From: a virus
Taxonomy: Duplodnaviria > Heunggongvirae > Uroviricota > Caudoviricetes
IMG/VR virus record: IMGVR_UViG_3300042275_000481
Span: 1-38,171 of that record
Strand: one strand, 5' to 3'
Length of the DNA: 38,171 nt
The notes under the pieces were generated by a model. The model saw nothing but the letters and a program-made list of their open reading frames with translations. It did not search any database and had not been told where the DNA came from. Both the position numbers and the translations under genes were made by a program. Shown piece after piece: positions 5,270 to 34,852 of this stretch (positions are counted from its first letter, which is position 1; each line of letters begins with the position of its first letter).

Positions 5270-5302
5270 TTTGTTCTCCTTATTTTCCCATATCCTCAAA
5301 CT

Positions 5303-5312
5303 TATAATATAT
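5303..5312 (-). promoter_or_regulatory. Putative early phage promoter ATATATTATA
   Basis: Exact copy of the motif, upstream of the leader ORF and uraA. Confidence 0.6.
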
Positions 5313-6574: not shown

Positions 6575-8509
6575 CTATCTAAATATATAGTAATTTATAG
6601 TGCTTGTGTTTCTTTTTATTTCGAATTTTATATTATCTTCTATGTTACCAAATGTATCAAAGAAGAATGGAATAGAAATATAAATGCCATTTGTTACAGT
6701 ACAATTATACTCTTTTTTGATTATACGATTTGTACTATCACGGTATATTATATCGAACTCATCAGATTCAGTTCCCTGGAGTACTATAAATAAGAATTGG
6801 CCAGCATCTATCAATGAAGCTGTATTATATTGTATATATTGTGGATTACTATTCAGGAATATACTCCTATAATTCTTTTTAAGTTGAGATATCTGTGCTT
6901 CTATCGATTGGACATCAGCGTCCTGCAAAAAAGTAGACACCTTCCCAGTTTGAAAATCAGTATAGTTTGATATGATAGAATTAAGATGTGCTGAGTAGAA
7001 CTCCGCAATTCCTTGAACTGATATATCTACGTCTCCGCCAGCAGAAGAATCTGTTATATATGGTTCATCATCATGCAAAACAAAATTCAATGCCGTATCG
7101 TAAAGGTAGACTTCTTGTACTGATATATCAGAAGAGGTCTCTCCATATGTATTAAAATATGGATCCGTTGAAATTTGATACTTATTAAAGTTGTCAAATG
7201 CAAGGGTTGATTCTATAATAGATGATGTATTAACAATACCAGATATATTTGTCGTCTCATTATCATTCCATTTAATATCTTCAATTATATATTCAGATAT
7301 CTCTGTGGGAGAGAATGATGCAGTATGATTATTATTTTTATATTTTCCGCCTTCAAATATAGTGACTATACTATTGGCAACATCAGGGTCTCACTTTGCA
7401 ATATATCTGTCATGTAACGCTCTTGTTATATTAAAGGTACCTGCAGATATTTTAAAATTCATAGTTTCTGTATTTAGCGGTCTTACATATATTTCATATA
7501 CATCAGTATTTTGAGCACTAGGTATAATTAATTTTTTGTTAGAGTCCAAATAAAAGTCGTGTCCATTTACTAATTTTGTTCCTTTTTGAGTAATTGGGTC
7601 TATTTTGAATACGTTTAAATTAGTTAGTCTTCTAAAGGTTGCAACTGAACTTGATAATGTTTCGTATGTAGTATAGTAATAATTGCTATAATTTTTTCTA
7701 TCTTGCATATAAATAGTATCAAAGTTCTTTAAATTGTCATTTATTATAATTTCAATATCATGGAATTTTTTATTCCAAGCACCATAGTTATTTTGTATAA
7801 AATCAAAATATGTTCCCTGCTCACTTACAAATTCTGAACCATCTTTCGAAACAAAGTTTACTCCTTCAATATTAAACATATAATCTGAGTTAGCAAGAAC
7901 ATAATAAGTAGTATCTTCCTTAACTAAGAAGTCAATAGTGTCTAAAGTATCAATCTGCAATTCAGACATTTTAAAATGAAACTTATTATTCATATTTGTA
8001 TCTCTTATTAGAGTTATAGGATTTCTTGATATTTTAGCAGTAGGTGTTCTCTTGAAATCTACAATTATATGAATATTTTGATGACTTAATGAATCTTTTT
8101 TTATAAGCATAAATGCTTCTTTGCTAGTATAGTTTCTAATTGTCGCTATCTTTTGCTCGGGTATTTTATAACCATCATTATCGAATATTTGAAATGTAAA
8201 ATCTGCTAAACCAGGAGACAAACTTTGGTGTCCATAATCTGGAATACGATAGATGTAATATGTATCTAATAGAGATTTTTTTGTTATACGAGCATATGTT
8301 TCTTTTTTAGCTTTTTGGTATATATCTGCAAAATCCGCTGGCACAACACCACCAAGTTCTCTTACTGTAATCAAAAAAGGGATAGACCCGTCTTTATAAG
8401 CGAGTTTATCCCTGTTTATTGTATTTACGTAGAACATTATTGAATGTGGTAGTTTACTAGCAGAATTTTCAGGGGTTTGATTATCTAAGATAATTCTTTT
8501 CTGCTTCAT
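6575..8509 (-). CDS. Probable virion structural protein, 644 aa, with one in-frame TGA (7391..7393) read as Trp
   Basis: ORFs 7391..8509 and 6575..7090 share a frame. The 100 codons between them contain no stop and no start codon (K-TGA-DPDVANSIVTIFEGG...DTA-LNFVL). Confidence 0.82.
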
Positions 8510-8526
8510 AGTTTACCCTCCTCTTC

Positions 8527-9564
8527 TTATCTTATTTCAGAGATTACTGCATTGTATAGTTTTGGCAGTCCATCTTTTTGAAGATCAGGTAGTCTATTGA
8601 ATAATCTAGTAGATCCCCCTAGAGTAGCTCCATGAAGTGTTGCAAATAGATAATGCAATAAATAAGGAGCATATTCGATAGCAAAGACTAGGCCTTCACC
8701 ATACATACTTAACCATGCAACTTCGAATTTTGAAACATCGATTGGTTCATTGAAGAACGCTTCACCGAATGATTTCAAGAATCCTGAAAGGCTATCGAAG
8801 TCGATATTTGATACTTCTTCATAATTCTTAAGTGCAGCTAAACTAGTTCTGTGTTTAAGAGCCTTGTAAGCAAAGTCATCAATTGTTGATGAATCTGGTT
8901 TATTAAGAACATATCTTAAGAAGAACTTAGCAATAAGGAATCGTGCAGCTGAATTGCTGAACTCGTCACCATAAGGGAATGCTCCTGGTGTCTTAATTGC
9001 TGCATTTGAGAATAAAGTTGTATAGATATTTGTAAGGTATTCTAATACTTTTCTATTAGAAAATACACTATCTGCTTTGTTGTCGTAAATCAGTCTATAA
9101 GAAATTATACCTGATTCTAATATAGCGTATAAATCTGTTGTAGCACTTACTTTTAGATATTCACTCTCGTCTTTTGACCAGTGTCCAATTCTGTGCATGT
9201 TCATTAAAGCTGCAGGAGAAGTTGGTGTCACTTGACTTTCTCCTTCCAGTTGTTTATTACGAACCTGACCAAATAGGAAAGGAATGAATGGTGGGATAGG
9301 AGAACGACCAGTAGATGTTGCGCCGAGATTGAATAATCTAATACGTCCATTAAATTGCTCAAATAAAGCGATAGCTTCTTTTAATAATGGATAGTATGAG
9401 CTCTTAGATTTAATTTTTAGCTGTGCTAATTCAGCCGCTAAATGGTCTGGAGTAATAATACCCACTCCTTGATTTAATTTCATATTAAGAGCATTCTTAA
9501 TTTCATTCTTCTGGCTTGAACTTAAATGCAAAGCATACATTTCAGTTTCATTTAGTTTTCTCAT
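8527..9564 (-). CDS. Hypothetical late protein, 345 aa, probable virion component
   Basis: First gene after the late promoter at 9601..9616; AGGAG RBS. Confidence 0.8.
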   Translation of the reverse strand: MRKLNETEMYALHLSSSQKNEIKNALNMKLNQGVGIITPDHLAAELAQLKIKSKSSYYPLLKEAIALFEQFNGRIRLFNLGATSTGRSPIPPFIPFLFGQVRNKQLEGESQVTPTSPAALMNMHRIGHWSKDESEYLKVSATTDLYAILESGIISYRLIYDNKADSVFSNRKVLEYLTNIYTTLFSNAAIKTPGAFPYGDEFSNSAARFLIAKFFLRYVLNKPDSSTIDDFAYKALKHRTSLAALKNYEEVSNIDFDSLSGFLKSFGEAFFNEPIDVSKFEVAWLSMYGEGLVFAIEYAPYLLHYLFATLHGATLGGSTRLFNRLPDLQKDGLPKLYNAVISEIR

Positions 9565-9600
9565 AATAACATCTCCTATCTGTGCAATTATTATTTATCT

Positions 9601-9616
9601 CATATAATTAATTGTT
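9601..9616 (-). promoter_or_regulatory. Putative late promoter AACAA-N4-TTATATG
   Basis: Minus strand AACAATTAATTATATG. Confidence 0.75.
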
Positions 9617-9646
9617 CAAAGTTTTGGGACTTTGAAGATATAAAAA

Positions 9647-9669
9647 AAGAAGATCGATTGATCTTCTTT
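9647..9669 (-). terminator. Intrinsic terminator
   Basis: AAGAAGATC-N4-GATCTTCTT with a T7 run on the minus strand. Confidence 0.75.
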
Positions 9670-16662: not shown

Positions 16663-17860
16663 ATCTTTTTTTAATATAGTCTGTTACGTCTATTTTATTG
16701 AATCTAATTGTTTGGTCATGTGTTTTTTTAAGTGCTAAGTTCATAAGAGACCCTGACATCGTTGATGCTAATAGTCCTGCATTTTTAATACCAATCTTAT
16801 GATATAATTCCCCAGCACATTTATTACAAATCTCATCACTCTTACAATAAAGTGGAGACCTCATTTCAACTTCCTTGCCAACAAATCTATCAATATTTGC
16901 TTCATCAAGCATAGTTTCTTTACCGCCAACTAAAATATATCTATATAAGAACATAGATTTCATTTCTTTGGTAATAGTTGTTTTAAGATATTGATTAGTA
17001 CCACAGTCAGTTCCTTTTTCATCTAAGGTAACAACTTGAACAGCGTTATTAATCTTCTTAGTTTCATAACCAGCTTTTTGAGTTTCGACACCACGAGCAT
17101 ATCCACCTGCAATTGTTGAGTTAGCAAATAGTGGGAATTCTTTCTGAGAGATACCTTCCATATAGTTAGATTTAAGAACGTCAAGTTTTCCTGTATATGG
17201 ATTTTCCATAACTCCACCCATAATGGATGTTTTCTTATAGTTATTTTCAAAGCTGAATGCACCGCTTTCAAAGAAGTCATAACCTTCGTTACCCTTTTCT
17301 TTGATAAGCTTACGGCTAAGTTCTAATAATTCAGACTCAATCTTACTTACAGCGTTTGGGTCACCATCTTTGATTTCTTTTGCATACTGTTCAAATAATT
17401 CTTCCTTACGTTTAATAACTTCAGGAATAGGTACGTTCATATCATAGTCCATTGTTGGTGATATAAAGTAAGTAATTCCAAGGGTCATCCATTCGGCACG
17501 GTCAAGATATCCAGCATAGTCATCCGCAGATATTTCATCATTAAGAAGCATATTAGCAAGTTGTTTCTCAAATGAGCCTGTAGCCTTCTTATTGAATACT
17601 ACATCTTGATAACCAAACTTTTTAAGATACTCATCTGGAATAACAAAGAAGTTCCATAAATATCTTCCTATAGTTGTTTCTATTGTTTCTTTATTATAGA
17701 GGCGATCTTTAGGTAACCTAAAAGTGTCAAATGTGTTAAATCTTGGTTCATCTTGGCCCATGCGGACTGCAAAGAAGTTTCTCAATAGATTCATATCTAT
17801 ATCTTCCTTTGTAAGTTTCAATAGGGCTTCAATTTCTTGTAGTGTTAGTTTACGTTTCAT
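16661..17860 (-). CDS. rpoC: Phage RNA polymerase beta-prime C-terminal subunit (probably virion RNAP), 399 aa
   Basis: Bridge-helix region YMEGISQKEF...GYARGVETQKAGYETKK, DCGT, zinc site RSPLYC...ICNKC, trigger-loop-like AGLLASTMSGSLMNLALKKTH. Confidence 0.9.
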   Translation of the reverse strand: MKRKLTLQEIEALLKLTKEDIDMNLLRNFFAVRMGQDEPRFNTFDTFRLPKDRLYNKETIETTIGRYLWNFFVIPDEYLKKFGYQDVVFNKKATGSFEKQLANMLLNDEISADDYAGYLDRAEWMTLGITYFISPTMDYDMNVPIPEVIKRKEELFEQYAKEIKDGDPNAVSKIESELLELSRKLIKEKGNEGYDFFESGAFSFENNYKKTSIMGGVMENPYTGKLDVLKSNYMEGISQKEFPLFANSTIAGGYARGVETQKAGYETKKINNAVQVVTLDEKGTDCGTNQYLKTTITKEMKSMFLYRYILVGGKETMLDEANIDRFVGKEVEMRSPLYCKSDEICNKCAGELYHKIGIKNAGLLASTMSGSLMNLALKKTHDQTIRFNKIDVTDYIKKR

Positions 17861-17914
17861 AAACCCGCCTCCTTTAAATTTTTTCTTTTATATTTTTTTA
17901 TTTAATTCTTTTTA

Positions 17915-18325
17915 TTAATATTTAAACGTTCCTAGAATTGTTTCGTTTCTTATTAAATAGCATTCTAAATCTTCAAGTTTTTCTAATTCTTTCTTTTTAA
18001 GAACAGTTCCTGAAAGGAATTTATAATGGTCTTTAATATTGAAAGGTGTTGCATATTCAGTTGTAACATAAGCAAGGTCTAGTTTCTTCACTGTATTTCC
18101 AGTTTCATCTAAATAATCAGCAAGAATAAAACCTGGACGCACATATTTAATCGCACCAGTTTTCTTAGCTTCTAATAGAATGATACCTTCATCGGTCTCA
18201 TCAATCTCTTCACCTTGTAGTACAGGAAAGAACAGTGTTGCCTTAATCATGTTCATATTTGTAAGTTCTGATTTAAGTATCAGATTGTGGTATTCTTTAA
18301 TAGTTTTTTCTTCAATAGTTTTCAT
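17915..18325 (-). CDS. Hypothetical protein, 136 aa
   Basis: AGGAG RBS; last gene of the late operon that starts at 23664. Confidence 0.75.
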   Translation of the reverse strand: MKTIEEKTIKEYHNLILKSELTNMNMIKATLFFPVLQGEEIDETDEGIILLEAKKTGAIKYVRPGFILADYLDETGNTVKKLDLAYVTTEYATPFNIKDHYKFLSGTVLKKKELEKLEDLECYLIRNETILGTFKY

Positions 18326-18336
18326 TTTCTCTCTCC

Positions 18337-19095: not shown

Positions 19096-19109
19096 TTTCG
19101 GGCCTCCTT

Positions 19110-19637
19110 CTAAAAGTATATGTAATAATCTATATCGTATGTTTCGCCCTCTTCGACAGGAATCGGGTCGAATACAACTCTTGAAAATAGTTTATCATTT
19201 ATATCACTTGCTGCATCATTACCTAAAAATAGTCCAAGTTCTCTGATTACTGAGCCACTTGATGGGGTTAAAGAACCTTTTAGAACTATATACATTTGTC
19301 CACTAGATGCCTCTAGTATTTCCTTAGCCACAACAATTTTAGTTCCTATTAGAGAACCTAGATCTATAGAATCTAACTGTGTAGCTATTCCAGAAGAGCC
19401 AAATCCGAATCTTCTTAATTTGTAAGAAGTAGAATCGCTTTCTGTTATATATTCATTACTATAAGAAAAATCAGAAGGAAATGCATTTAGAATAAATAAC
19501 TCTCGAAGATATTTTCTACCTTCAGTAACAATCATATTTTCTTTTTCAAATAACACCGTACCATCAGATTTTTTCATAATAACATAACCTTTTGGTCCAA
19601 TATTATCTGTAAATTTTACTTTATCTTCTATTTTCAT
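19110..19637 (-). CDS. Tail collar / fibre-attachment-like virion protein, 175 aa, paralogue of 18337..19095
   Basis: Shares KGYVIMKKSDGTVLFEKENMIVTEGR, FGFGS, ELGLF and LFSRVVFDPI...YYIYF with its neighbour. Confidence 0.65.
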   Translation of the reverse strand: MKIEDKVKFTDNIGPKGYVIMKKSDGTVLFEKENMIVTEGRKYLRELFILNAFPSDFSYSNEYITESDSTSYKLRRFGFGSSGIATQLDSIDLGSLIGTKIVVAKEILEASSGQMYIVLKGSLTPSSGSVIRELGLFLGNDAASDINDKLFSRVVFDPIPVEEGETYDIDYYIYF

Positions 19638-19639
19638 TG

Positions 19640-22600
19640 TTATTCATCTCCTTCTGTAAGTTCGATATTTAATTTTTCATCATAAAATACCATATCCATT
19701 TTAGTTGATTCGAGTCTGTGTTCCACTCTTTCAGCTAATGGGGTAATTTCTGATATACTATCATATTTCTTTTTATATGTTGTGTAATACAATTCAGTAG
19801 TATAAGATAGGAATATTTCTACTGAGGTTTGTACGAATTGCAGTGTAGCTTCTTCTTGGTCTTTAAGTGATAATGACCATTGCATATATGCTTCTGATGA
19901 GAACAAGCTTTGAAGACCATCTATTAAAACAAGAAGTTTTTCTGTATATTCCAATATTAATTCTCTCATGGCATCAGAGCCAGACTCTGGAATACCATCT
20001 GCATAAGTCCCATCTATAATACTCAACGCTTCATCCAAGTAGTTGCCAGTGCTTAACGCAAGGTCAGCAGGTGGTATATACGCTGATGTATCTATATATA
20101 TTGGATTGTTGTCCGTAATATAAATATTTTGGAAGATATTATTTGCAAAATCTATAAATGCCTCATTATGATATAACTCAGGATTTCTATATGGAGACAA
20201 TAGCCCATCAAAATAATCCACTGGGAATTTCATGATTTTTTCAATTGCAAAATAATATAAGTCTCTATAGTTTATATTGCTTCCAGTAGGGTCATATGTT
20301 GATGAAGTTGGTAAGTCATAATTATCATTCCAATATTGTCCTAATATATGCAACCATAAATCATTATTGGTATTATCTATTCTGAGTAAATTAAGATTAT
20401 CAAAAGTTTCTAGTATATAACTTCCAGAGTTTTGATACTCATTTGCTACATCCTGCTTACCATAACTTGTTTTATGTGTAGAAAATAGTGAATTTTCTAA
20501 TTGTTTTGCAACTTCTGTTTTTTGGGCATAATTATATTTTTTATAGAATATATTTAGATTACCTTCGATACGATTATCATAATTTATCCAATCACTAGCT
20601 TCTTTGTAGACATTATACTTGTTAAATGAAGCTGGTACTGCTGCAGCACCATTGATATCTGTTGCTCTCCATGAAATATTAAACTCGTCATCGATATTAC
20701 TGTAATCAGATATATAACTATTCAATAATGAATCTATACTGCTTGCCCAATTTGATGATTCATTTATTCCGTAAAATAAACCAGTATTAATTTCACCTAT
20801 ACTAGCTATATTGCTATCTATTCCATATAATTTAAGTATAGCTTTATATATAACTTTGATAGCTTCGAAATATGAACCAATACTAATCTCTGTTGCAACT
20901 GTTCCGAATAATTCCCCAGCATCTAGTTTTGTATCACAGAGAACAGGGTCAGTTCCTTTTAATAGGTTGCTTTGAAGATAGTCTATAGTGCTCATTACAT
21001 ATCTTGAAAGTGTATATTTTTTGTAAATATTTTCCGATAAAGTTAAGCTTAGATATTTAGTTTCAGAAACATCTAAACCAATATCAAGAAGCGCTTCTTC
21101 TGTGACCTCATCAGCATCCCAATATATATCATCTCTTAAGAAATCTCTATAGTTTACAGCACTAGGTCTAGCTGCAAAAATTTCACGAGAACCATTATCT
21201 GAGAAATAAGGGACTTCAATAAATTTAATAGTTCCTTCTGAATCTTTTATTCCATTATTATAATCAGTTTCTTCATATATTAAGAATTTCCTAATTTCAG
21301 CTTCAAAATCTCCGACTTCAAATACTCTAAGTAATACAGAGATAACATCACGGCTACCTTTTAACTTAACTAACTCGTTAAATAATTTAACAATATTCAG
21401 TTTATAGTCTCTTTCTCCCAATATGAAATTATATTTTTCATCATTAAGAACTCCAAGACCATATGATTCTAAGAAATTATATATATCTGTTGAGTTGAAA
21501 TAATCAGGGTCATGAATATTTTCGATTTTAGAATTAAGGAATCTTTCAATCGCAAAGAAACTAATAAATAGTTTTTCATATAATTTATAATCCCCTTCTT
21601 GTATGAAGGATTTATTTAAAAGTACTCGGTAATAATAATCACGTGTTTGTTGATAGATTGTTAAGAATAGTTCGATTTCTCTTTTCTCATAATCTCTGTC
21701 CCCATAATTATTAGTAAATTCGCTAAGAGTTGAGCCATCGCCAACATAGTATCCGATGATATCACTCTCATTAGATAAGCGTGAGATATATGCATTGCTA
21801 TAAAAGTATCTATATCTATAAAAATCATTATTTATCTGAAATAACTCATCCTGCTCAGTGTAGCCTCTATAATAAGTGTCTGCACTCGTTGAGAATGATA
21901 CTCCTCCTTTATTACTTGCAAATAGTAAAGAAAAGGAAGGATAATTATTCTCAATCATTCTTGAAATTACGTACTCTTGGCTATCAGAAAGTAATTGCTC
22001 TCGAAGAGTAGGGTTCAACTCTTTATATAAAACTGTATATGTGAATCTATTTGGAACTGTTATAGTAGTTCCAAATGCATTATTAAGATTTTGTAACTCG
22101 GTAGTTGAAGCATTAGAAATATCTAAATCTTTAATATCAATAAATATTAACTGTTGTCCATCTTTAGCTGTATTAGTTTCATACTCGCTAGCATAATTTT
22201 TCTCAGCACTAACTGAACTACTAATTTGATAGTTGTCAAGAATTAAATCCTTATTATAAAATAATTCTGAGATATCGTTAAATGCTGCTAAGAATCTTCC
22301 AGCTAGTTGTTTGTTAGTATCAACGCCAAAATAGATTTTTTCATCAGTATCTGTCGTAGGATATATTAACGAGAAGAAATTGTATAGATTTCCTTCAAGT
22401 ATTGTTTTTAATTCTTCAATAGTTCCATTAAATTCTCCAATATTTATAGTATTATAAATATCAATTATATAACTAACTATTGAATAAAAGTCGTTTATAT
22501 TGTCAGTATTAACATCAAATAGTTCAGAAAAGCCTATAGAACTTGAAAGCTCTCTTAAATCTAATGGTAATGACATCATAATTTCTCCATTATCAGATAC

Positions 22601-23656
22601 TAAATCTAAGTATCTCGTATATCTTCTGAAATACTCTATATCTCCTGAAGTATTTCGTCTGGTAGAATCCTTTTGTTCTATTGTAGTAGTTAGATTAAAT
22701 GTAACAGTGTCAGTAAATGTAAAATCTACAGTAGATTCTCCTGAATAGTTAGATGCTAATAGGTTTGTAAAACTATTTGGGCCATCTTGTATGTATTGAA
22801 TAAGATTTAGCAATACTAGTGCACTAATGATATTGCTTTTTTGAAAGTATGAACTGTAAAAATTAGATTCAGTCATAGATGGTAAAATAGCAAGATTAAA
22901 TGGGTCTATTCTTCCATACCACATATCGCCAATAGCAGGGTCAATAGATGAAAATAAACTAATACTCTCTTCTGTTGCTCCTACCCAAGTTCCTGCTGTA
23001 ACACATGTATACAATGTACTTGTAGCCTCATCTAACCACATATCATTTATTTTAGGGTTTAATGATTGAGAGATAGAAACTAGTATTTCTGTTGCTCCAT
23101 CTCAAGTCCCTGCAACTGTTGCTTTATAAAGAATCTTTCTTTCAAACCATTCAGTTGAAGTTCTAAATGTATTAGGAAGAGGATTATCAGCTAATAACTG
23201 CTCTATTTTCTTATTAATTATGCTCACAATTCTAGAAAATATAGAATCTGCTTCAATCCCTTGTTTTAATTCATCTACTCCAAAGACGTATCTATATACA
23301 TTTTCATATATAAGGTCTACTCTATCCTGATTGAAGTCATTTACAAAGTTTTTTAGATTAATTAAGTCATTAATAGTGATAAATTCTTCAAAATATTTTC
23401 TGAGCATTTTTGAGAAGAAAAGACTATCACTAGTTTCATTTAACTCAATAATGCTTCCGTCTTTGATGACCGCATTATTTATGAATGTAGTAATATTGGC
23501 AAACTCTTCTTTGGACACATCAGCAATTTGATACTGTGATAATGCTTGTTCTTGTAAGAAACTCGCAATACTCGTTCCATAGCTATCCGCCATTTTTTCT
23601 AAATCTGCTAGTGATTTTAGCGAGAAATTATTTTTTGCCATAGTATCTACCTCCAT
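19640..23656 (-). CDS. Large baseplate/tail virion protein, about 1335 aa, with one in-frame TGA (23102..23104) read as Trp
   Basis: ORFs 23102..23656 and 19640..23041 share a frame joined by 20 sense codons. LYKATVAGT-TGA-DGATE aligns with the downstream repeat LYTCVTAGT-W-VGATE. The likely start is MAKNN at 23641. Confidence 0.88.
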
Positions 23657-23663
23657 TTTGTTT

Positions 23664-23679
23664 CATATAAAATATTGTT
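23664..23679 (-). promoter_or_regulatory. Putative late promoter AACAA-N4-TTATATG
   Basis: Minus strand AACAATATTTTATATG. Confidence 0.75.
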
Positions 23680-23712
23680 CAAGTATGCTTAAATCTATAA
23701 AAAACAAAAAAA

Positions 23713-23737
23713 AAAGACAATTTGGCCAATTGTCTTT
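23713..23737 (-). terminator. Intrinsic terminator
   Basis: AAAGACAATT/AATTGTCTTT followed by a long T run on the minus strand. Confidence 0.8.
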
Positions 23738-23743
23738 AATCTT

Positions 23744-24772
23744 TTAACATCTTCCTCCGCCAGAGGAACCTCCACATCTTCCTCCACCACATCGTTGACC
23801 TCCTCGTCCACATTTGTTTCCTGGGATGTCTGGGTGTCTTTCTATGTCAGTGTTTTGTTTAAGGTACTCAATGACACTATCTTTAATCTTTTCATCAATG
23901 ATGTCATTTTCTACCATACCTTGAACGATAAATTCTGTTGTTGTTCTTTCACGTGCTGTATATGTAAATTGTTTAATCATATCAGCCATGTCAGTATTTC
24001 CCTTATTCCAGTCATAATATAATGAACCATCTTGTTTAATAATGATATCATTAACCATAACCGTTTCTCCAACCTTTAATGCTGAGTTTTCAATTCCTCT
24101 GTGGTATGAAACTTCAAAGCCATCTTTTGTTAAAAATGAATCTGTATTGCATACGCTACAACTACTAGAACCGACATAAGTAAGACCTAATGACACTAGT
24201 TGTTGAAAAAACGGGTCATCAAGAGTGCTCAAATTAGACTTATTAATAGTTCTATAATCAGCTCTAAAACTGATAGTTCTATTATAGCCTTGATACATCC
24301 CGATGAAATCAAGTATTGCTTCATCTGAGTAGTCTCTGAAAACTACACAATTGATTTTGATGCTCTTGTTAATGCTGTCGAACAGAAAATCTGAACGTCT
24401 AGATATTATCCTGTCAATATGTCTTGAAATATTGACTGAATTGATTCTACTGTTATTGATATACTCCACAGCTTCTATTGCAGTATCATAAGGTAGTGTT
24501 GTGTTAACAAATATATACTTGTCATCTGAAATCTTTTGAATCATTTCATCTAACAGTTTAATATCTGCAAATGGTTCACCACCTGTAAATACAACATCCC
24601 TAACGTCTGGCATTTTGTTGATAATATCTAGTTGTTTCAGTATCTTCTTAACACTAAAATTGCTAGTATCAGCATACTCATGCTTTGTAGTACAAAAACT
24701 GCAATTGTTCTTACAGTCATACGGTACGAATATCGTAGCCGCTAAATTACTTCTACCAACGATAAATTTCAT
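23744..24772 (-). CDS. Radical SAM protein with a Gly/Cys/Arg-rich C-terminal tail, 342 aa
   Basis: CKNNCSFC cluster motif, FTGGEPF, an extra CSVC, and the tail GNKCGRGGQRCGGGRCGGSSGGGRC. Confidence 0.88.
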   Translation of the reverse strand: MKFIVGRSNLAATIFVPYDCKNNCSFCTTKHEYADTSNFSVKKILKQLDIINKMPDVRDVVFTGGEPFADIKLLDEMIQKISDDKYIFVNTTLPYDTAIEAVEYINNSRINSVNISRHIDRIISRRSDFLFDSINKSIKINCVVFRDYSDEAILDFIGMYQGYNRTISFRADYRTINKSNLSTLDDPFFQQLVSLGLTYVGSSSCSVCNTDSFLTKDGFEVSYHRGIENSALKVGETVMVNDIIIKQDGSLYYDWNKGNTDMADMIKQFTYTARERTTTEFIVQGMVENDIIDEKIKDSVIEYLKQNTDIERHPDIPGNKCGRGGQRCGGGRCGGSSGGGRC

Positions 24773-24804
24773 ATTAAATCTCCTCTCATATTATTTACCA
24801 TATT

Positions 24805-24814
24805 TATAATATAT
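24805..24814 (-). promoter_or_regulatory. Putative early phage promoter ATATATTATA
   Basis: Exact copy upstream of the radical SAM gene, back-to-back with a late promoter. Confidence 0.6.
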
Positions 24815-24837
24815 CTTTAAAGGTGCATAAAATTCAA

Positions 24838-24853
24838 AACAACTTATTATATG
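24838..24853 (+). promoter_or_regulatory. Putative late promoter AACAA-N4-TTATATG
   Basis: AACAACTTATTATATG. Confidence 0.75.
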
Positions 24854-24869
24854 ACAAAGAGGTGAGAAT

Positions 24870-25478
24870 ATGGAAGAGAAAAATAAAATAGGAAATATAA
24901 ACTTCATAGATTCAGAAGGAAAACCAATCATACAATCAGATGATAGTCCATTTCCTGAGAGCTTTTATTTTGATAAATTTTATGAAGAGAGAGAATATAA
25001 AAAATTTATAAAGAATATCGAGAAGTTGATAAGGACATCTAACGAATATAAGAACTATGTGGAACAACTGCATAATACAATTGCAGCACTAAATATCGAT
25101 AATATCTTATCATATATAACAGATGCTGATGCAGATATTGAATTTCACCACTACCCTTTCGCCTTATACGATATAGTTGACGCAGTAGTATTACAAAAAT
25201 TCTTTAATCAAGAAAATTTCACATCGTTTAGTGTTGCTAAGGAAGTTATGGAATTGCATTATAAGAATTTTATTGGCCTAGTTCCACTTACAAAGACTAC
25301 TCATGAACTAGCACATGCTGGTGAGTTATTCTTATCATCAAAACAGATATTTGGTGACTATAAGGAATTTATGGAAAGATACCCAGAGGGTGTCAATAAA
25401 GAGACCAGAGAAAAAATTGAAGAGATGGAAAAGCTCACAGAGCAAGATTACCCATCAGATTCGGGAGGGTTGTTCTAA
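24870..25478 (+). CDS. Late protein with an HNH-like His motif, 202 aa
   Basis: EFHHYPFAL...LVPLTKTTHELAH resembles a beta-beta-alpha-metal signature; GAGGTG RBS. Confidence 0.65.
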   Translation: MEEKNKIGNINFIDSEGKPIIQSDDSPFPESFYFDKFYEEREYKKFIKNIEKLIRTSNEYKNYVEQLHNTIAALNIDNILSYITDADADIEFHHYPFALYDIVDAVVLQKFFNQENFTSFSVAKEVMELHYKNFIGLVPLTKTTHELAHAGELFLSSKQIFGDYKEFMERYPEGVNKETREKIEEMEKLTEQDYPSDSGGLF

Positions 25479-26695
25479 TGTATGTTAATAAACTAGAAAA
25501 GTTTTTTGTAGAAGCAACTCTACTAGACCGTACAAATGATGTCACAATTGATATATCGCCTTTCATAAGGGCAGTCAGCGTTAAGAAAAACTTCATAAAT
25601 AACAGTTTCCCATTATTTGTGATAGATATTATGACCACTGAACAAATAAGAGATATTATGAGAGACAATGAAATATCCGTTAATATCAAAGTTGACAAAT
25701 ACTCAGATAGTGACAGTGAATTAAGTGAAGACAGTAGTGAGATACCTGTAATTGAAGAAAGAATTATTGACACAACCATTAGAATATATGACAAGCCTTA
25801 TGTTAGTAGCTCTACATATAAAGAAGAAGATAATGAGAATTCTGACAGTATGTCTGAGGTAATGCGCGTATTTCCTTATCAATTATCAGGGATACCAGAT
25901 GAGTTAATTGCTAAAAATGATAAAATAATAAATGAAATTTATGACAATGCGAAGATAAATGATGTCTTAGTTCATATACTATCACAAGTTGAAAATAACG
26001 AACTGTATATAGACAGTAGTGATAATCCTGAAAGATTTAGGTCGCTACTAATTCCATCTTTAAATGTCATACCAGCTATCAGATACATTCAGAGTATTTA
26101 TGGTGTTTATAATAGTTCTCTTGGAATATTTTTTGATACTAATCGAACTTACCTCTATAAACCGTTTAACAAAAACCGTACCAACAATAATACGGTTGAA
26201 GTAATAACTATTAAGGCTAATGACATTTCAGATGATAATAAACTACTAACGCCTCTTGTTGATGAAAATAACAATGTTAGAATACACTTAAAAAATACCC
26301 CTGCGTTCAGTTCATTCACTAAGATAAATGATGATGAAATAGGTAAGACTACTGTATTTAATTCATATGATAGCAACTTTGATGTTGTTAGAAGAATTGT
26401 TGAAAATGCGACTGTTGAAGGGAATAAAATCAGATATTATTGGAATTATCAACAAGATAAACTATTTGAAGATACATTTATAAACGAGAATAAAGAAATT
26501 GGTGAAGGTATCAATATATCTTTAAGTAACATCGACCCTAACTATTTTAATATTGACACGCTGTATGTTCTAAATACTCAAACAGAGTATGCAAACGGTA
26601 ATTACAACCTAATTGAGCAAGCATTCAGTATATACACCACAGACTATGAGCATTATAACTCAATGATAAACTTAAAACTAATAAAAATAAGATAA
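25478..26695 (+). CDS. Probable virion structural protein (baseplate hub-like), 405 aa
   Basis: Late operon with TAATG coupling; pattern KKNFINNSFPLF...LIPSLNVIPAIRYIQSIYGVY. The hub call is tentative. Confidence 0.65.
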   Translation: MYVNKLEKFFVEATLLDRTNDVTIDISPFIRAVSVKKNFINNSFPLFVIDIMTTEQIRDIMRDNEISVNIKVDKYSDSDSELSEDSSEIPVIEERIIDTTIRIYDKPYVSSSTYKEEDNENSDSMSEVMRVFPYQLSGIPDELIAKNDKIINEIYDNAKINDVLVHILSQVENNELYIDSSDNPERFRSLLIPSLNVIPAIRYIQSIYGVYNSSLGIFFDTNRTYLYKPFNKNRTNNNTVEVITIKANDISDDNKLLTPLVDENNNVRIHLKNTPAFSSFTKINDDEIGKTTVFNSYDSNFDVVRRIVENATVEGNKIRYYWNYQQDKLFEDTFINENKEIGEGINISLSNIDPNYFNIDTLYVLNTQTEYANGNYNLIEQAFSIYTTDYEHYNSMINLKLIKIR

Positions 26696-26713
26696 CCATA
26701 AGGTTATCTTATT
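26686..26713. terminator. Bidirectional terminator between convergent genes
   Basis: AATAAGATAACC-ATAA-GGTTATCTTATT with A/T runs on both sides. Confidence 0.85.
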
Positions 26714-26723
26714 ATTTTTTATT

Positions 26724-27773: not shown

Positions 27774-27788
27774 GATATTTCCTCCTCC

Positions 27789-30644
27789 TTACAATCTGCC
27801 AATTTTCATCAGAGCTGATGTTAATTGGTCTCCAGTATCTTTATTACGTAATGCACTATAAGGCACTACATCCCAGCTAATATTTTCAGGGCTATCATAA
27901 ATATATAGTCTTTCACTTGCATCATTAGCAATCATAATACTCATTGCTGAGTAACGTTTCATTAATGATGCTGATAGTTTTTTGTCTCTTAAATAGTCAA
28001 TTCCAGTGTCTGCCTTAACATCATCTACTTCTTTTTGTGAGAATACTAGATGAGCATTAGCAATATTATCACTACGCTTACCAGCTAATTTATTAGCGAC
28101 TGCTAGACGAGACACCTTTTCAAGGTCTTGCCAGATTTCAGCACTTTGTGGTAAGTTTTGTACATCTTTTTTAAGTTTAGTCATTCCAAGAAGGTCTGCA
28201 ATCATATCCTTATCTTTACTTGAAGATTTAAGAATACCTTTAAGTGTTTGACCTTCAGAGTTTGATTTAAGTATATAAGCCATTTCTTCTGATGGAATTC
28301 TTGTAATAACACCAAGGATACCAATAACAGCTACTAATTCGTTATCTGCAAATGTACCATCTGCATAGCGTTCTTTGAATCTGATAGTAAGCATTAATGG
28401 CGTATTGTATTTACGGTCTTTAAGTTCACGTTTATCATACTCTACTTCACCATAAGCATATGTTGATGCAGCACTAAATTTAGGAGCTACACGAATTGTT
28501 GGTTTAGCTTTCTTATCATATTCGTAAGTTGTTGATAATTCCACAGGAATTCTAGTTTGAACTATTGCTTCTGTTATTAAATCATTATAATATTCTTCAC
28601 CATTAAGAATGTCTTCTTCAATAATTTCACCAATTCCTTGAAGTGTTTCAGCTGTATCTTCATCTAAGAAAAAGTAAACTTTTTCTCTAACTTCAGTACT
28701 AGCATTAAGATTATTTTGTCTCATCATTTTTTCAAGAACAGAACGATGTTTATTTAATAATGCTTTTAATTCTGATTCTGATAACATTTCATCTTCAGGA
28801 TTGACTTTTTCACCATATGATTTAAATTCTCCAGCTGGTGATGGGTCTTTTTCTTCAGTTGGTTGTGCTATTTCTTTTTCTCTAAGTTCTAATGCTTTTC
28901 TTAGACTTTGTTGTTGAACTTCTATACTTTCGATTAAAGCTTCAACACGTTCCCAACCCATGATTCCTTCTTTTCTATGTCTTTTAAGTCTAGCTTTTTC
29001 TCTTATAGCTGCAGCAGCTTTTGGGAAAATTTTGGCTAGTAAGTCGCCAGTTCTCTTGAATAGTCCTTCTCCACCTAGTGATTTTCTAAAGATGAAGAAT
29101 CCTGCAACACCACCGAGTAGTCCTAAGCCAATAGGACCTAATGCGGCAGCCGCACCTGTTAGCCCAGCAACAGAAGCACCTAGAGTACCACCTGCAAATC
29201 CTGCAGCAGCTCCAGCGCCTGTTGATGCAACTGTTCCAGCTGCTTCTAATATTTCTTGTAATACAATACCAAATATTTTTGGCATAGTATTACCAATTAT
29301 TCTCTCACTATTTTTAATTCTATCTGCATCAGCAGCATTTATAACTGTGCTAGAAATTTCTGGGTCTATTACCTTATTATCAGGGAATCTTGCCACTAAT
29401 TCACCTCTAGTACTTCTAGATAGCGGTAATCCTAATCTAACAACTAGATATTGAATGTATTCATTACCAGATATTCTTTCTGATTGAAGTAAGAATGTTG
29501 CTTTTTCAAATCTGTCTTTCAATGCAGCATTTTTAGGATGTAATAACATTTCAGCAACAGTTGTATCTAATGATTGTGCTAATTCTTTAGAATTAACAAC
29601 GATGTCTGTTGATGTAAGTCTTGTCATTGTAGGTTTATTTTTCTTTAAGTAGTCTAACTGAATTTCTAAAGCATCCACTTCAGCTTGTGCTGTTACTTTA
29701 GCGGCACCAGTTGCATTCTTAACTACAGCTTCTTTTTTAGCTATTTCTGCTTTTGTCTCAGCTATTTTATCATTATAATCACTCATTTGTTCAGTGAAAT
29801 CTTTATTCGCTCTTTCTTTAGCACCACGAGCAAGTTCAAATACCTTATCTCTGTTTAATGCTTTTCCAGGGTCGGCTGCATCTTTCTTCAAGAAGTCTTG
29901 CAGCGTTAGATACTCGTAGTCTCTTAGTGAACTGCTATTATCAGTTGTACTAGCTTCTTGCAAATTAATCAATTCTTCAGGATATGTTGTTACATATTCT
30001 GCAAGTAATTTAGCCTCAGCTTCAGGGAGTACAACAGCATCTTCTAATAAAGCATCTATCATTGGTACACCAGTTTTATATTCTTTGCTTTCTTGTCTAA
30101 TTAAACTGTATGCAGAAATATTTTGGAAGAAATCTGCAGCATCTAATTTACCTTTTGAAGCTTGTCTAGCTAATTTTCTATTACCAAATTCAGTACCAGC
30201 TAGAGTATCTAGTGCTTGAATTGCAATATTTCCATCTTCTCCACTTTGATAAGCAGAAATATCAATTACTTGATTAGAAATTAATAGATTTATATATTCA
30301 GCATATTGTTCTTCAAATAGTCTTTTTAGCATTACAGAAGTTTCTGGTTCAATATTATCAGATATAACAATCGGAAAGGATTTAACTGACCTAGAAGCTA
30401 TGTTTTTGACACTATTTGCTCCAATAATTGCTCCGAAAGCACCTGTTAAGCGCTTTTTGGCTTCCTTAGCATCTGTGACTGTTCTAGTATCTGGGTCAAT
30501 AATCGCCCCAAATCCTGGTTGGTCCACTGAAAGTTTATCTTGTGGTTCATATTGAGGAAACTTTCTTTTTAATTTATCTGAATAGCTAGATTTTTTAAAG
30601 AACGCTTCTTGTAATAATTTATCATTACGTTTCATTTTCATCAT
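27789..30644 (-). CDS. Probable internal head / ejection protein, 951 aa
   Basis: First gene after the late promoter at 30673. It has L-x-E-A motifs, a coiled-coil, and a roughly 50-aa Gly/Ala hydrophobic segment. Confidence 0.75.
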   Translation of the reverse strand: MMKMKRNDKLLQEAFFKKSSYSDKLKRKFPQYEPQDKLSVDQPGFGAIIDPDTRTVTDAKEAKKRLTGAFGAIIGANSVKNIASRSVKSFPIVISDNIEPETSVMLKRLFEEQYAEYINLLISNQVIDISAYQSGEDGNIAIQALDTLAGTEFGNRKLARQASKGKLDAADFFQNISAYSLIRQESKEYKTGVPMIDALLEDAVVLPEAEAKLLAEYVTTYPEELINLQEASTTDNSSSLRDYEYLTLQDFLKKDAADPGKALNRDKVFELARGAKERANKDFTEQMSDYNDKIAETKAEIAKKEAVVKNATGAAKVTAQAEVDALEIQLDYLKKNKPTMTRLTSTDIVVNSKELAQSLDTTVAEMLLHPKNAALKDRFEKATFLLQSERISGNEYIQYLVVRLGLPLSRSTRGELVARFPDNKVIDPEISSTVINAADADRIKNSERIIGNTMPKIFGIVLQEILEAAGTVASTGAGAAAGFAGGTLGASVAGLTGAAAALGPIGLGLLGGVAGFFIFRKSLGGEGLFKRTGDLLAKIFPKAAAAIREKARLKRHRKEGIMGWERVEALIESIEVQQQSLRKALELREKEIAQPTEEKDPSPAGEFKSYGEKVNPEDEMLSESELKALLNKHRSVLEKMMRQNNLNASTEVREKVYFFLDEDTAETLQGIGEIIEEDILNGEEYYNDLITEAIVQTRIPVELSTTYEYDKKAKPTIRVAPKFSAASTYAYGEVEYDKRELKDRKYNTPLMLTIRFKERYADGTFADNELVAVIGILGVITRIPSEEMAYILKSNSEGQTLKGILKSSSKDKDMIADLLGMTKLKKDVQNLPQSAEIWQDLEKVSRLAVANKLAGKRSDNIANAHLVFSQKEVDDVKADTGIDYLRDKKLSASLMKRYSAMSIMIANDASERLYIYDSPENISWDVVPYSALRNKDTGDQLTSALMKIGRL

Positions 30645-30672
30645 CCTTTCACGAAAAAATTTAATTTGTTTT

Positions 30673-30688
30673 CATATAATTTATTGTT
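30673..30688 (-). promoter_or_regulatory. Putative late promoter AACAA-N4-TTATATG
   Basis: Minus strand AACAATAAATTATATG; divergent from the copy at 30731. Confidence 0.75.
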
Positions 30689-30730
30689 TCAACTATTATT
30701 ATTTTAAAATAATAGTTTATAAGTGAGAAG

Positions 30731-30746
30731 AACAATAGATTATATG
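30731..30746 (+). promoter_or_regulatory. Putative late promoter AACAA-N4-TTATATG
   Basis: AACAATAGATTATATG. Confidence 0.75.
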
Positions 30747-30769
30747 AGAAAATTAAGGAGTGTGATATC

Positions 30770-31921
30770 ATGGCTGATTTCAAAGACAAATATGTAGATA
30801 CCAATAGTAATGTGGCTGGATTTGAAGACCTTACCAAATTTGATGTCTATATGCAGAATCATAGATATGCTGATGACTTTACAACAGGATACGCTTTTGT
30901 ATTCATTACAAAACCAATGTTATTTTTATACCCAAACAAACCACAGGGTGATAAGATAACTACTACTGAAAGATTAGCATATGAAAATATGACAAGAGAC
31001 CATGTATTCTCACAATTTATAGATGGGGAAGCAATGAATGACAATGATTTGATGCTTGTAAAACAATTATCATATTATAATGATTTCGACACTTTAAATT
31101 TTCTACCATTAGTGACAAATAGAGTTAAGTCATTCCAAGCTATGGACGTGACACTTGCTCAGACTGAAACATATGATACACGTCATGGTTTTAGAATGCC
31201 ACTACCTACTCATAAGATTGATTCTATTAATAGTAATAGTCTTTCACTAGTATGTACAGAAACGCTTAACCTAGATTTCATTAAAATGATGACACTTTGG
31301 GTTAACTATATAAGTAATGTTACTGATGGAACTTTCCACGCTAATCCTGATATGATTAGAAATAACGTATTAGATTATATGAGTTCTATATACTACTTTG
31401 TACTAGAACCAGATGGAAGAACTTTAAAATTCTGGTCTAAATATACAGGTGTATGACCTACCACTATCCCTCAATCACCATTGAGCTTTAGCAGAGGCGA
31501 AAGTAGTACTGTTGATTTAGACTTACAATTTACTTACACAAGTAAAGAGGATATGAATCCTTCTATACTTGAAGACTTCAATAGAGTTTCATTAAACTAT
31601 TTTGAAGAACTATATCCAAATCAAATCGCTTTAGATGTATTAGATGATGACTACCCTTCTGTTAAGAATAGTCCATTATTAAATCCTAATGCTCTAAGAG
31701 CTAATATAAGTTTTAACAGCACTAATAGAGGACCATTAGTATTCTATAAGAATGGTTCTATTGAAAATTCATATCTTAGCACACCATTATCTAATAAATT
31801 TGAAATTAGTTTTGGTGAGAATACATTTGAAGGTGTATATGTAGAGAATAAATTTGAATCCGAGTACTTCTTTGAAAGTGCTAAGGAATTCTTCAAGTCA
31901 CAATTAAGTGACGAACAATAA
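30770..31921 (+). CDS. Tail-tube-fold protein (T4 gp19/gp54-like), 383 aa, with one in-frame TGA (31454..31456) read as Trp
   Basis: ORFs 30770..31456 and 31481..31921 share a frame: KFWSKYTGV-TGA-PTTIPQSPLSFSRGESSTVDLDLQFTY. Tube proteins typically have G-x-aromatic-P at this position. Confidence 0.82.
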
Positions 31922-31935
31922 GGAGGTAGAGATAT

Positions 31936-34818
31936 ATGGCTACAGAAGACAAAACATTAGTATCATCATCTCAGTATGATATATACGCTAAGCTGTTAGC
32001 AATAGCTAGTAAATATACAGATATAAACAATGAGGACTTTCTAAAAACTGGTCTTTTTGGATATATCACAGAAAGTATGGCTTTAATTGCTCGTGACAGC
32101 TCATTTCACAAAACTATGCTTTATAACGAGAGCTTCCTTAATACAGCTAATATGCCAAAATCTGTATATAACTGGGCTAAGATGTTCAATATCAATATTT
32201 CTAATGCTACACCTGCATATGCAGATATCATGGTTACTATTGCTGTTGAAAATCTAGAACTTGGGTCTCCTTTTGTTTACAAACATACAGAGGCTAAATA
32301 TGGTGCCGAAGTTTTAACATCAGATAAAAATATGCTAATATTAGACCGTGCTAATCCGTTTATTGCTGGTGAACTCCAATTTATGATGGAACGTTCAGTT
32401 GCAGTATACAGGTCATCTAGTGCAGATTCAGCATTTATTGTTAAATATATTAGTACCGAGGAACCAACATCTAATTTCCAAAATTTAAGCAATTTATTCA
32501 TTCGTAGTAATATTAGTAGAACCGATGGAAAAGAGTATCTCTCTTTTATTATCAGAGCATATCAATATACTCGAAATGAAATTAGAAAACAAATTAGTAG
32601 TGCATCATTCTTAGATACTAAAATTCATACTTTTGAATTTAGTGACCAGTTTGTTGCCGCTAGACTATACTATAAACGAGGAACATCTTCAAGAGAAGAA
32701 ATTGAACTTAGATATTCAAATATCCCAAGTACAAGTAGTGTAGATGCATTATCTAAATTTGCATATTACAATCTGTCATCTGAGAATTCAATACAGATAA
32801 AATTTTCTAGTGCTAGTGGAGACTTTATGCCTGCCGCTAATAGTACATTATATCTAGACCTTTATACAACAAGAGGTTCTGCAGGAAATATTGAATACAC
32901 TGGTGATGTTATTTTTAGATTACAAGAAGAGGAAATGAGAAACCTTCCAGTATACGCTATGTTCTTTAATAGCCGTTCTATCGGGGGAATTGACAGACCT
33001 TCTCTAAATAGAATTAAAAACGCAGTAATTAATGAGATTTCAACTCGTGATGTTATCGTTACCGAAAATGACCTTAATAACTACTTCTTAATCTTAACAG
33101 CATTATTAGAAACAGTTAACGATGGTAAAATTACCTTCATTAAGAAACGTGATGATATTCTAAGACGTGTATTCAGTTCTTATATATTAATGCGTGACGG
33201 TCTACAAAATGGTTCGGCAGCACCTTCTGGGTATCTATCTAAGGTTCTTCCTACTAACACATTAGATGCTACATTTGAAGTTTCGACTAACGTTAGTAAA
33301 CCATTTGGTACAGTTATTGAGAGAAATCCTGATGACGCACAATATCAATATGTACAAGACCCATCAAGCGACGACTATTACATAATTCCTTTCTATACTA
33401 GAATCACACTGTCACCTTTCAAAAAGGTTAAGTATATCTATAACTTAACAGATATGAGCAAGAGTTTATCTTATAGAACTGTAACTAATAACTCTGGTAG
33501 TAAGTACTTTATACCATCAACTGTATCTGTTTACAGAGGAATGGAAGGAATTACAACTAGTAATTTTTACAGTTTCAAATTTACTTATATAACTAACTTT
33601 AATCTTAAGAATGAAATAACTGAAGGACAAGATACATTTAATCTGTCATTTTACCGTAGGGGAACAGAGACTGTTGCCATAAAAACTATGGTGTTTGATA
33701 TGAATGACAATATTACAATATCAAGTATTGAAGATGAAGACAATGCTGGTGTATTCGAAACAGTTATTGAATTAAAAGTATTTGTTGACGAAGTAAATGA
33801 TGAATTCATTTTCGATGTAAATCAAGAAACCGATTACGGTACAAATATTGTAGTACTTGATCCAGACAATGCAACTGTCGCTTTACCTAGTGAAGTAAGT
33901 GTTGTATTAAGATTTAATAATATCACTAATGATAGTATTGATATAGAATTTATATCTGGTGGTTACTTAACACTATTTAAGAATCTAGACGAATTAATGT
34001 ATTCAGATATCACAGTTAATGAGACAGCTCCTCAATGGAACCAAATAAGTTCATTTACTAGCGCTGCTGTAACTACTCCAACAGTAGATGCGACTATATA
34101 TTCACATTATATAAACACAGCTGATGGAAGTCTTTGAACTTCAAATGGAACAACTTGGACTGATACTGGTGAGGACCTTATTGGAAACGAAGTTGACCCA
34201 ACATCAGCAGGAGATGATGATGCTTACTACTGGAACTCTACAGATGGCACATTATTCCAATATGATGCTAATACGTACATTACATCGTTAAAAATTAAAA
34301 ACATTCCATTAGTACATTCATCATTCTTCAATGGTGAAGAAAGTAGCACTAAATTTATTAATCAATTATTTGTATATATAGATATGCTTAAAGAAAACTT
34401 AGGTAAGCTAGAAACAAATACATTCTTTGACCTGAAGTTCTACAATACATATGGAAATGCACAATACTATAATACTATTTCAACTAATCTTAAACTAGAA
34501 TTAGATATTCATCTTAAAGAAAATGCTTATGCGACTGGTTTAGAGCTAACAATTAAAGATTTTGTTAGGTTACTAGTAGATGATGCTAATACATCTAAAT
34601 CATTAAGAGTTTCTGATTTGATTAGAAATCTAACAAATCAATTCTATAACCAAATAGATTATGTTGACTTCAAAGGTCTTAATGACACATTTACACAGTA
34701 TATTTCACAAACATCGTCAATCAGACCTAATCTTTATGCACCAGAATATCTAAATATTCCAGAAGAAAACCTTCAATATATCAAGATAATTGACTTTGAT
34801 GGTACAGAAATACAATAA
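31936..34818 (+). CDS. Baseplate wedge subunit (T4 gp6 / baseplate J-like), 960 aa, with one in-frame TGA (34135..34137) read as Trp
   Basis: ESFLNTANMPKSVYNWAK, YTTRGSAGN, GGIDRPS and DLNNYF motifs. After DGSL-TGA come 82 sense codons (TSNGTTWTDTG...) joining ORF 34384..34818 in frame. Confidence 0.87.
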
Positions 34819-34836: not shown

Positions 34837-34852
34837 AACAATATATTATATG
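34837..34852 (+). promoter_or_regulatory. Putative late promoter AACAA-N4-TTATATG
   Basis: AACAATATATTATATG. Confidence 0.75.

Follow-up and report, generated by a model that had tools for sequence, protein, structure and literature searches.

The window analysed here, a stretch of 38,171 nucleotides (nt), is the start of the 127,461-nt linear IMG/VR record IMGVR_UViG_3300042275_000481 (working label G000; GC content 31.6%), which is a genome fragment of an uncultivated wastewater jumbo phage akin to the giant Bacillus phages AR9 and PBS1, and the decoding of UGA as tryptophan (Trp) in this phage is strongly supported by alignment of its genes with their relatives. As far as reading frames and upstream motifs can tell, TGA appears to be tolerated solely in genes behind late-type promoters, namely those for virion proteins, the terminase and homing endonucleases, while the early-type genes (nucleotide metabolism, pieces of the non-virion RNA polymerase (RNAP), permease and nucleases) seem to write Trp as TGG only. 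A UGA switch timed by the phage, worked by a phage factor in a host that uses the standard code, is the explanation that we favour and hold to be moderately probable.

Four genes of the window are interrupted by an in-frame TGA, at 7391 and 23102 on the minus strand and at 31454 and 34135 on the plus strand, each of which ends an open reading frame (ORF) under translation table 11. An earlier reading of these letters without database searches (the sequence-only reading) had counted 100, 20, 8 and 82 open codons from these sites to the next table-11 ORF, and both positions and lengths proved exact; followed on to the next TAA or TAG, the open runs amount to 271, 1153, 154 and 226 codons, in the same order. 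Given a per-codon chance of TAA or TAG of 0.0585 (from base composition), four such same-frame ORF pairs with open gaps would occur together with a probability of about 4e-8. Table 4 fuses the eight ORFs into proteins of 644, 1338, 383 and 960 amino acids (aa). The first is a late gene of unknown function (6575-8509, minus strand) that joins ORFs 7391-8509 and 6575-7090, has TGA 7391-7393 as codon 373 and shares its transcription unit with a virion-protein gene, and the second is a late gene (19640-23656, minus strand) with an ATG start at 23656 and TGA 23102-23104 as codon 185. The 383-aa product is a tail-tube-like virion protein homologous to AR9 g213 (30770-31921, plus strand; TGA 31454-31456, codon 229), followed by the 960-aa homologue of AR9 g212, phiR1-37 g207 and BpSp gp268 (31936-34818, plus strand; TGA 34135-34137, codon 734).

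To judge from these homologues, each fused ORF pair encodes one protein. A check for splitting at the same points found none among the full-length homologues of the four genes, which are single chains in AR9, phiR1-37, BpSp and metagenomes. The 644-aa protein was aligned with nine metagenomic homologues, of which eight (634-718 aa) have full length; those of the 1338-aa protein, P0019 (1234 aa, 100% query coverage), P0020 and P0021, are single chains that share its N-terminus; and the AR9, phiR1-37 and BpSp homologues of the 960-aa protein are single ORFs of 863-904 aa. Within the 383-aa protein, the matches to Pfam Phage_TTP_15 (residues 62-286) and phrog_21400 (residues 23-274) span codon 229, and the motif KYTG-x-x-P...KE(D/E)...DFN carries on in frame past the TGA, while the C-terminal motifs LENNT..KFYNTYG and PEYL of the 960-aa family are encoded solely downstream of it. 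The letters themselves are secure: contigs from four other wastewater runs (Logan) show no differing letters over 23102, 31454 and 34135, the independent contig L273 carries TGA at 7391, and further TGAs of the record, at 124250, 126278 and 126347, recur in six to eight separate JGI/Logan contigs. Since independent assemblies carry TGA at all four sites, there is no sequencing or assembly error.

The strongest evidence for Trp is the interchange of TGA and TGG with a related contig, G001 (IMGVR_UViG_3300031601_000002; 40.6 kb), which is syntenic with positions 16-56 kb of the record at 55-80% amino-acid identity. The comparison of G000 with G001 over 40 kb gave, in that order, the codon pairs TGG/TGA (22), TGA/TGG (3), TGA/TGA (1) and TGA/other (6), so that TGG or TGA is the partner at 26 of the 32 aligned TGA positions, the remaining six lying in poorly aligned stretches, and no glycine pattern was seen, which excludes code 25. 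At sites 31454 and 34135 G001 has TGG; conversely, W177 and W222 of the 383-aa protein, both written as TGG in the window, are TGA in this relative (about 70% identical), and W177 is invariant in AR9, phiR1-37 and BpSp. The column of site 7391 holds W in 8/8 full-length homologues, and another protein, P0002 (57% identical to the 644-aa protein), stops just before that site, most likely at the same TGA called under table 11. Site 23102 falls within a lineage-specific insertion of the 1338-aa protein (22900-23200, minus strand) that has no counterpart in P0019-P0021 and contains an internal repeat, AGTwDGATE / AGTWVGATE, with TGG in its second copy. The conserved W of the HNH and treble-clef endonuclease motifs encoded elsewhere in the record is likewise written as TGA.

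The use of stop codons is consistent with this. Of 38 ORFs in the window, 33 end in TAA or TAG, much as had been claimed, the other five being the four sites and a TGA at 13752. The latter ends ORF 13752-14762, which was absent from the earlier list, and it is no case of a terminator, because it lies inside a group I intron (13511-13776, minus strand; Rfam RF00028, 82 bits, E 4e-19) of the RNAP beta-like gene 12908-14762; the ORFs on either side of the intron match phrog_2987 at profile positions 21-290 and 291-467, and these complementary matches make them exons of one gene. In the whole record 16 table-11 ORFs end in TGA, and 10 of these then stay open for 127-1153 codons; introns also contain the small ORFs that end in TGA at 71.6-72.1 kb and 100.5 kb, so apparent TGA terminators here may be artefacts of group I introns. 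A radical-SAM ORF with TGA at 96496 and an 83-aa ORF ending at 121261 can be read either way, as stop or as Trp. A search of the record for many genes ending in TGA, which would speak for an ordinary stop, left at most 2, next to 39 TAG and 100 TAA, and TGA is essentially unused as a terminator. Calling the genes again with table 4, a check that had been proposed, lowered the number of ORFs and raised coding density both in G000 (152 to 139 ORFs; 0.898 to 0.921) and in G001 (54 to 36; 0.863 to 0.965). The ORFs of G309, a second contig from IMG sample 3300031601 that together with G001 (72 kb in all) represents one more heavily recoded relative, fell from 43 to 33, whereas the related control contig G003 (152 kb, 29.7% GC), with 14% of its ORFs ended by TGA, gained nothing by the same ORF procedure. 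TGG is the main Trp codon, as the sequence-only reading had it: the record has 225 TGG against some 19-22 credible in-frame TGA, about 10:1. Roughly 12% of ORFs of at least 100 aa carry TGA and about 10% of Trp codons are TGA, as compared with about 45% of late-class Trp codons in the G001/G309 relative.

Where these codons stand can be asked of transcription units, because the intergenic regions are enriched for two motifs, ATATATTAT-N6-G and AACAATWWATTATATG. For AR9, the early and late consensuses AAATATATATTAT-(6N)-G and AACA-(6N)-TA/G have been defined experimentally (PMC5312081); the first motif equals the early (virion RNAP) consensus, also annotated as early promoter in the AR9 record, and the second, here AACA-N6-TA, fits the late (non-virion RNAP) one. 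Thirty-five late motifs lie outside ORFs and one inside, though ORFs cover about 90% of the DNA, and they are kept at homologous places in G001, including the divergent pair 30676-30688 / 30731-30743. We infer that the motifs may act as the AR9 promoters do, unit ends and timing included, and the late-type ones would presumably be read by the non-virion RNAP. In the window, the late-type motif AACAATTAATTAT(ATG) at 9604-9616 (minus strand) heads gene 8527-9564 and then the 644-aa gene, another (23667-23679, minus strand) stands directly upstream of the 1338-aa gene, and a third (30731-30743, plus strand), whose divergent partner lies at 30676-30688 on the minus strand, lies ahead of the tail-tube-like gene and the 960-aa gene; one more, at 34837-34849 (plus strand), is upstream of 34888-35976. 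Motifs of the early type, matching the AR9 consensus, occur on the minus strand at 24799-24814 (ATATATTAT-N6-G), 16613-16628, 16026-16041, 5297-5312, 2225-2240 and 412-427, and none of the genes behind them has an in-frame TGA. Every TGA-bearing gene stands behind a late motif, which for the terminase is located in the right-end extension of the record.

TGA had been said to occur in late virion genes only, and this was too narrow. Beyond the window it is found in the large terminase gene (two TGAs; five in that of G309), in an unknown 267-aa gene and in six homing endonucleases, which are one HNH/NUMOD4 protein (three TGAs), three treble-clef proteins of phrog_559, one of phrog_15137 and one GIY-YIG protein; each of the six has its own late-type motif, and several adjoin pieces of group I introns. 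The further claim that enzymes lack in-frame TGA holds for the nuclease, permease, RNAP pieces and deoxycytidylate (dCMP) deaminase of the window. The gene content fits AR9 biology: the RNAP piece in an early unit (12908-14762) has no TGA, and 16661-17860, an RNAP gene that belongs to a late unit and presumably encodes a subunit of the virion RNAP, has two in G001.

The late bias, at first graded as suggestive, is confirmed statistically by promoter class, each ORF being classed by its nearest upstream motif. In G000 the ratio of TGA to TGG was 22/131 in late against 1/81 in early genes when counted automatically (p = 8e-4), the lone early TGA being the intronic one at 13752, and 17/116 against 0/98 after curation (p = 6e-5). 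Among promoter-proximal genes TGA was present in 8/21 late and 0/16 early (p = 0.006), and with the endonucleases removed there remained 7 late TGAs as against 0 of 98 early Trp codons (p = 0.019). The relative gave the same answer, with TGA/TGG at 44/55 in late and 0/11 in early genes of G001 and G309 (p = 0.003), and the unassigned genes of G001, which include a RecJ-like DNA-metabolism block, had 0/8.

The switch that we favour, a known strategy of stop-codon recoding modelled by Borges et al., would work as follows. Early genes would be translated under the standard code of the host; a factor made later would let ribosomes read UGA as Trp; and late proteins and homing endonucleases would thereby be kept from premature synthesis. 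The factor would most likely be a tRNA-Trp(UCA) encoded in the approximately half of the genome beyond the record; its identity, like the standard code of the host, we infer. Such timing is favoured because TGA is wholly excluded from the early-class genes of two phages whose synonymous sites are mutually saturated, because TGG predominates at 31.6% GC, because only about 12% of genes carry TGA, and because the tested genomes with the closest homologues of the phage uracil permease (4138-5247) all carry release factor 2 (RF2). Izemoplasmatales, Acholeplasmataceae, Mariniplasma and Erysipelothrix supply the nearest bacterial homologues of this permease (59% identity), and 5/5 such genomes tested have RF2 above the curated cut-off; these homologues hint at a host related to Mycoplasmatota or Erysipelotrichales. 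The alternative pointer to the host, initiation factor 3 (IF3), gave 40-49% identity everywhere across 300 Bacilli genomes and no discrimination.

Several observations weigh against a timed switch. The window, the 127-kb record, its 12-kb left and 3-kb right extensions and the 72 kb of G001 and G309 yielded no tRNA. The hunt used ARAGORN under default and relaxed settings and the Rfam tRNA model at E up to 1, and matches of the relaxed ARAGORN run that allowed introns were obvious false positives only. Neither an RF1/RF2 domain nor a class-Ib tRNA synthetase (TrpRS) was found in the 127-kb record, and the agent of the switch is thus unseen. The sequence-only reading had noted the want of a suppressor tRNA or release factor for the window, and the same is now found for the entire record, yet the evidence is weak, since the record covers about 49% of the genome and continues at both ends, and since Borges et al. 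detected suppressor tRNAs in only 35% of code-4 phages. The tRNAs of related phages were considered as suppressors, and none is one (Ser(UGA) and Leu(UAA) in G003, Asn(GUU) in AR9). In addition, the promoter classes depend on the nearest motif, so that terminators and read-through could shift them; the early class of the relative holds just 11 Trp codons; mobile endonuclease genes, possibly imported from other sources, account for 12 of about 19 credible in-frame TGAs; the host is pointed to by one permease gene at 59% identity; and early genes share the avoidance of TGA terminators, for which a host with native code 4 would likewise account. This last avoidance also fits a switch, because AR9 has many continuously expressed genes (PMC5312081) and because a standard-code relative described by Borges et al. 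ends just 4 of 146 genes with TGA. The single tRNA gene of AR9 is late-class (PMC5312081), a precedent that a late-transcribed suppressor in the missing half of the genome would fit.

A host that itself reads UGA as Trp (code 4, no RF2), for example an uncultured bacterium akin to Mycoplasmatota, would free the phage of any need for a suppressor. On this account TGA would be rare through a recent move to such a host, the TGAs of late genes and endonucleases reflecting faster turnover or import, and we regard it as possible, though on balance unlikely. It would agree with the failure to find any suppressor tRNA, release factor or TrpRS across about 142 kb of the phage and 72 kb of the relative, with the near absence of TGA as a terminator in every gene class, and with permease kin from Mycoplasmatota and Erysipelotrichales, the neighbourhood where code 4 arose. 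However, TGA and TGG would then be synonymous everywhere, and synonymous sites between G000 and G001 are saturated; even so, TGA takes 0 of 81-98 early Trp codons in G000 and, in the relative, 0/11 early and 0/8 unassigned DNA-metabolism codons as opposed to 44/99 late ones. A phage native to code 4 should carry TGA in all gene classes, usually in excess of TGG, and what is seen is 0-1 TGA per 81-98 early Trp codons. In code-4 Mollicutes TGA predominates over TGG, whereas in this phage TGG is still the main Trp codon at 31.6% GC. Equally adverse are the RF2 genes of all five genomes resembling the permease donor and the share of genes with TGA, about 12% against the approximately 90% reported for phages of recoded hosts.

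The timed switch might also operate with no tRNA of the phage, if a late product disabled or outcompeted the RF2 of the host, or altered tRNA-Trp(CCA) so that it read UGA as a near-cognate. UGA is naturally leaky via tRNA-Trp in Bacillus. This version predicts the same class bias, agrees with the failure so far to find a tRNA, and gains something from the translation factors that the phage encodes, infA and IF3 among them, and from the survey of Borges et al. (bioRxiv 10.1101/2021.08.26.457843), in which just 35% of code-4 phage genomes had a detected suppressor tRNA. It has no candidate gene, however, and decoding has to be efficient for abundant virion proteins and for a terminase whose gene carries two TGAs in G000 and five in G309, while about half of the genome is unseen, which makes a missing tRNA the simpler reading; we therefore rate it as improbable. 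Widened to any late UGA switch that dispenses with a conventional suppressor tRNA, whether by an RF2-disabling factor, a retuned tRNA-Trp or a non-canonical RNA (for example, structured RNAs by infA, 11409-12891), the idea has a slim chance. Were it true, the AR9-type two-polymerase phage would be a clean system that couples transcription class and genetic code. All remaining explanations taken together deserve very little credence. That the TGAs are true stops of genuinely split genes or pseudogenes, sequencing errors, or sites of selenocysteine or glycine (code 25) insertion is scarcely tenable, for although under table 11 the ORF on either side of each TGA has a possible start codon, the alignments and independent assemblies rule all of these out: homologues are single-chain with conserved motifs across the TGA, identical letters recur between assemblies, TGA and TGG interchange at 26/32 positions of which none is glycine-like, and four open same-frame gaps would hardly arise together by chance.

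Phages that read TGA as Trp, with recoded codons enriched in structural and lysis genes, had been invoked as a precedent, and rightly so: gut phages with code 4 are known from the Agate, Jade and Topaz clades and from some crAss-like phages, and enrichment of recoded codons in late, structural and lysis genes, an intron homing endonuclease that is recoded by preference and divestment of TGA stops have all been described (Borges et al., bioRxiv 10.1101/2021.08.26.457843); for code 15, validation has been published (PMC9523058). In that work 26-71% of genes were recoded in clades with standard-code hosts and 90% in phages of recoded hosts, and a standard-code relative of Agate ended 4 of 146 genes with TGA, 34 with TAG and 108 with TAA (bioRxiv 10.1101/2021.08.26.457843). 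The phage described here resembles the gut code-4 phages in that TGA stands for Trp, is concentrated in structural and late genes and is absent from replication and early genes, and also in the recoded homing endonuclease of a group I intron and the near disuse of TGA terminators; in many of those genomes no suppressor tRNA is detectable. It departs from them in its wastewater habitat, probably in its lineage, which is AR9/PBS1-like with two multisubunit RNAP sets, in recoding that is very light here and heavy in the relative (about 45% of late Trp codons), and in classes that can be read, beyond gene function, from two promoter motifs with experimentally defined counterparts. With phages of code-4 Mollicutes (Mycoplasma, Spiroplasma) it shares UGA as Trp; there, however, the host code covers all genes, while here early-class genes exclude TGA and TGG predominates. 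Its standard-code relative G003, unlike it, uses TGA stops.

With AR9/PBS1, phiR1-37, vB_BpuM-BpSp and the Staphylococcus jumbo phages it has in common the virion block, split RNAP beta-like genes, the early and late consensuses and group I introns with endonucleases, and its dCMP deaminase (14763-15224) and uracil permease would fit a deoxyuridine-DNA lifestyle like that of AR9. The literature library that was searched contains no paper mentioning both AR9 and genetic code 4, and new here are the AR9/PBS1-like two-RNAP lineage, the habitat, the test at the level of promoters and the occurrence of light and heavy recoding within one clade. Previous evidence on the timing of late recoding was mostly gene function, and two mapped promoter classes make a late-only claim countable; the late-only test was passed in two related phages that recode about 10% and 45% of their late Trp codons. 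TGA recoding is thereby extended to phages of the AR9/phiKZ type and to wastewater, and annotation of such contigs with table 11 will split virion, terminase and endonuclease genes.

CheckV puts the completeness of the 127-kb record at 49%. Genome walking by exact-protein look-ups in metagenome contigs lengthened it by about 12 kb at the left and 3 kb at the right end, to at least 142 kb, and near-identical DNA is present in at least 10 wastewater runs. Its proteins are nearest to the AR9/PBS1 jumbo group at 27-35% identity, the phages matched being AR9, PBS1, vB_BpuM-BpSp, Staphylococcus jumbo phages, Yersinia phiR1-37, Listeria LPJP1 and Fusobacterium phages. The AR9 virion block g213-g212-g211 is syntenic here at 27-31% identity, a level at which the phage would be placed as a relative of Takahashivirus outside that genus. 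The window also holds split genes like those for RNAP beta and beta-prime (phrog_2987 at 12908-14762, phrog_2962 at 16661-17860) and, besides the deaminase and permease, an SbcD-like nuclease gene. G001 was found by an alignment-based scan of viral contigs, a single-protein scan having given no relative, and G309, which extends 21.7 kb past the right end of the 127-kb record, was reached through a scan of viral contigs for the late promoter motif whose other matches were mostly due to chance. A phage collection gave no match by megablast with the 1338-aa gene region, nor by tblastn with the 1338-aa and 644-aa proteins. The contig G310, whose sample belongs to the same numbering series, carries 26 tRNAs.

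Strain variants co-occur with the phage: contig L274 (JGI 3300042281) has a deletion inside the 644-aa gene, contig L050, set against G000 121980-122085, shows a gap near 122 kb that spans about 104 nt, and variant contigs of 90-95% identity differ mostly at every third base. A joint of 19630 to 26116, which two runs show in a single contig each, was treated as unreliable, its shorter side having only 21 letters.

Besides the six homing endonucleases, the 127 kb contain a minimum of four complete group I introns and several intron-like pieces that are split, with intron and endonuclease regions at 56-57.5, 60.9-64, 71.4-72.1, 77.1-78, 100.4-104 and 108.8-109.4 kb. An nhmmer profile built from the four introns of the record picked out an intron-like element at 3943-4160 (minus strand), at the 3' end of the uracil permease ORF, downstream of which a 78-aa ORF (3512-3748) weakly matches Xan_ur_permease; the permease gene is probably intron-split as well. 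The phage encodes IF3 (IF3_N and IF3_C domains) at L027:9886-10410 in the left-end extension, about 7 kb past position 1 of the window and 40-49% identical to the IF3 of Bacilli, as well as infA (IF1; Pfam eIF-1a) at 12151-12369. The latter lies within an ORF-poor tract (11409-12891, minus strand) and is flanked by GC-rich structured islands, each after a TAGTGTTNCGCTA-like hairpin, for which searching 11330-12910 against Rfam at E up to 10 gave nothing but chance hits and no tRNA; code 4 yields spurious plus-strand ORFs across the same tract.

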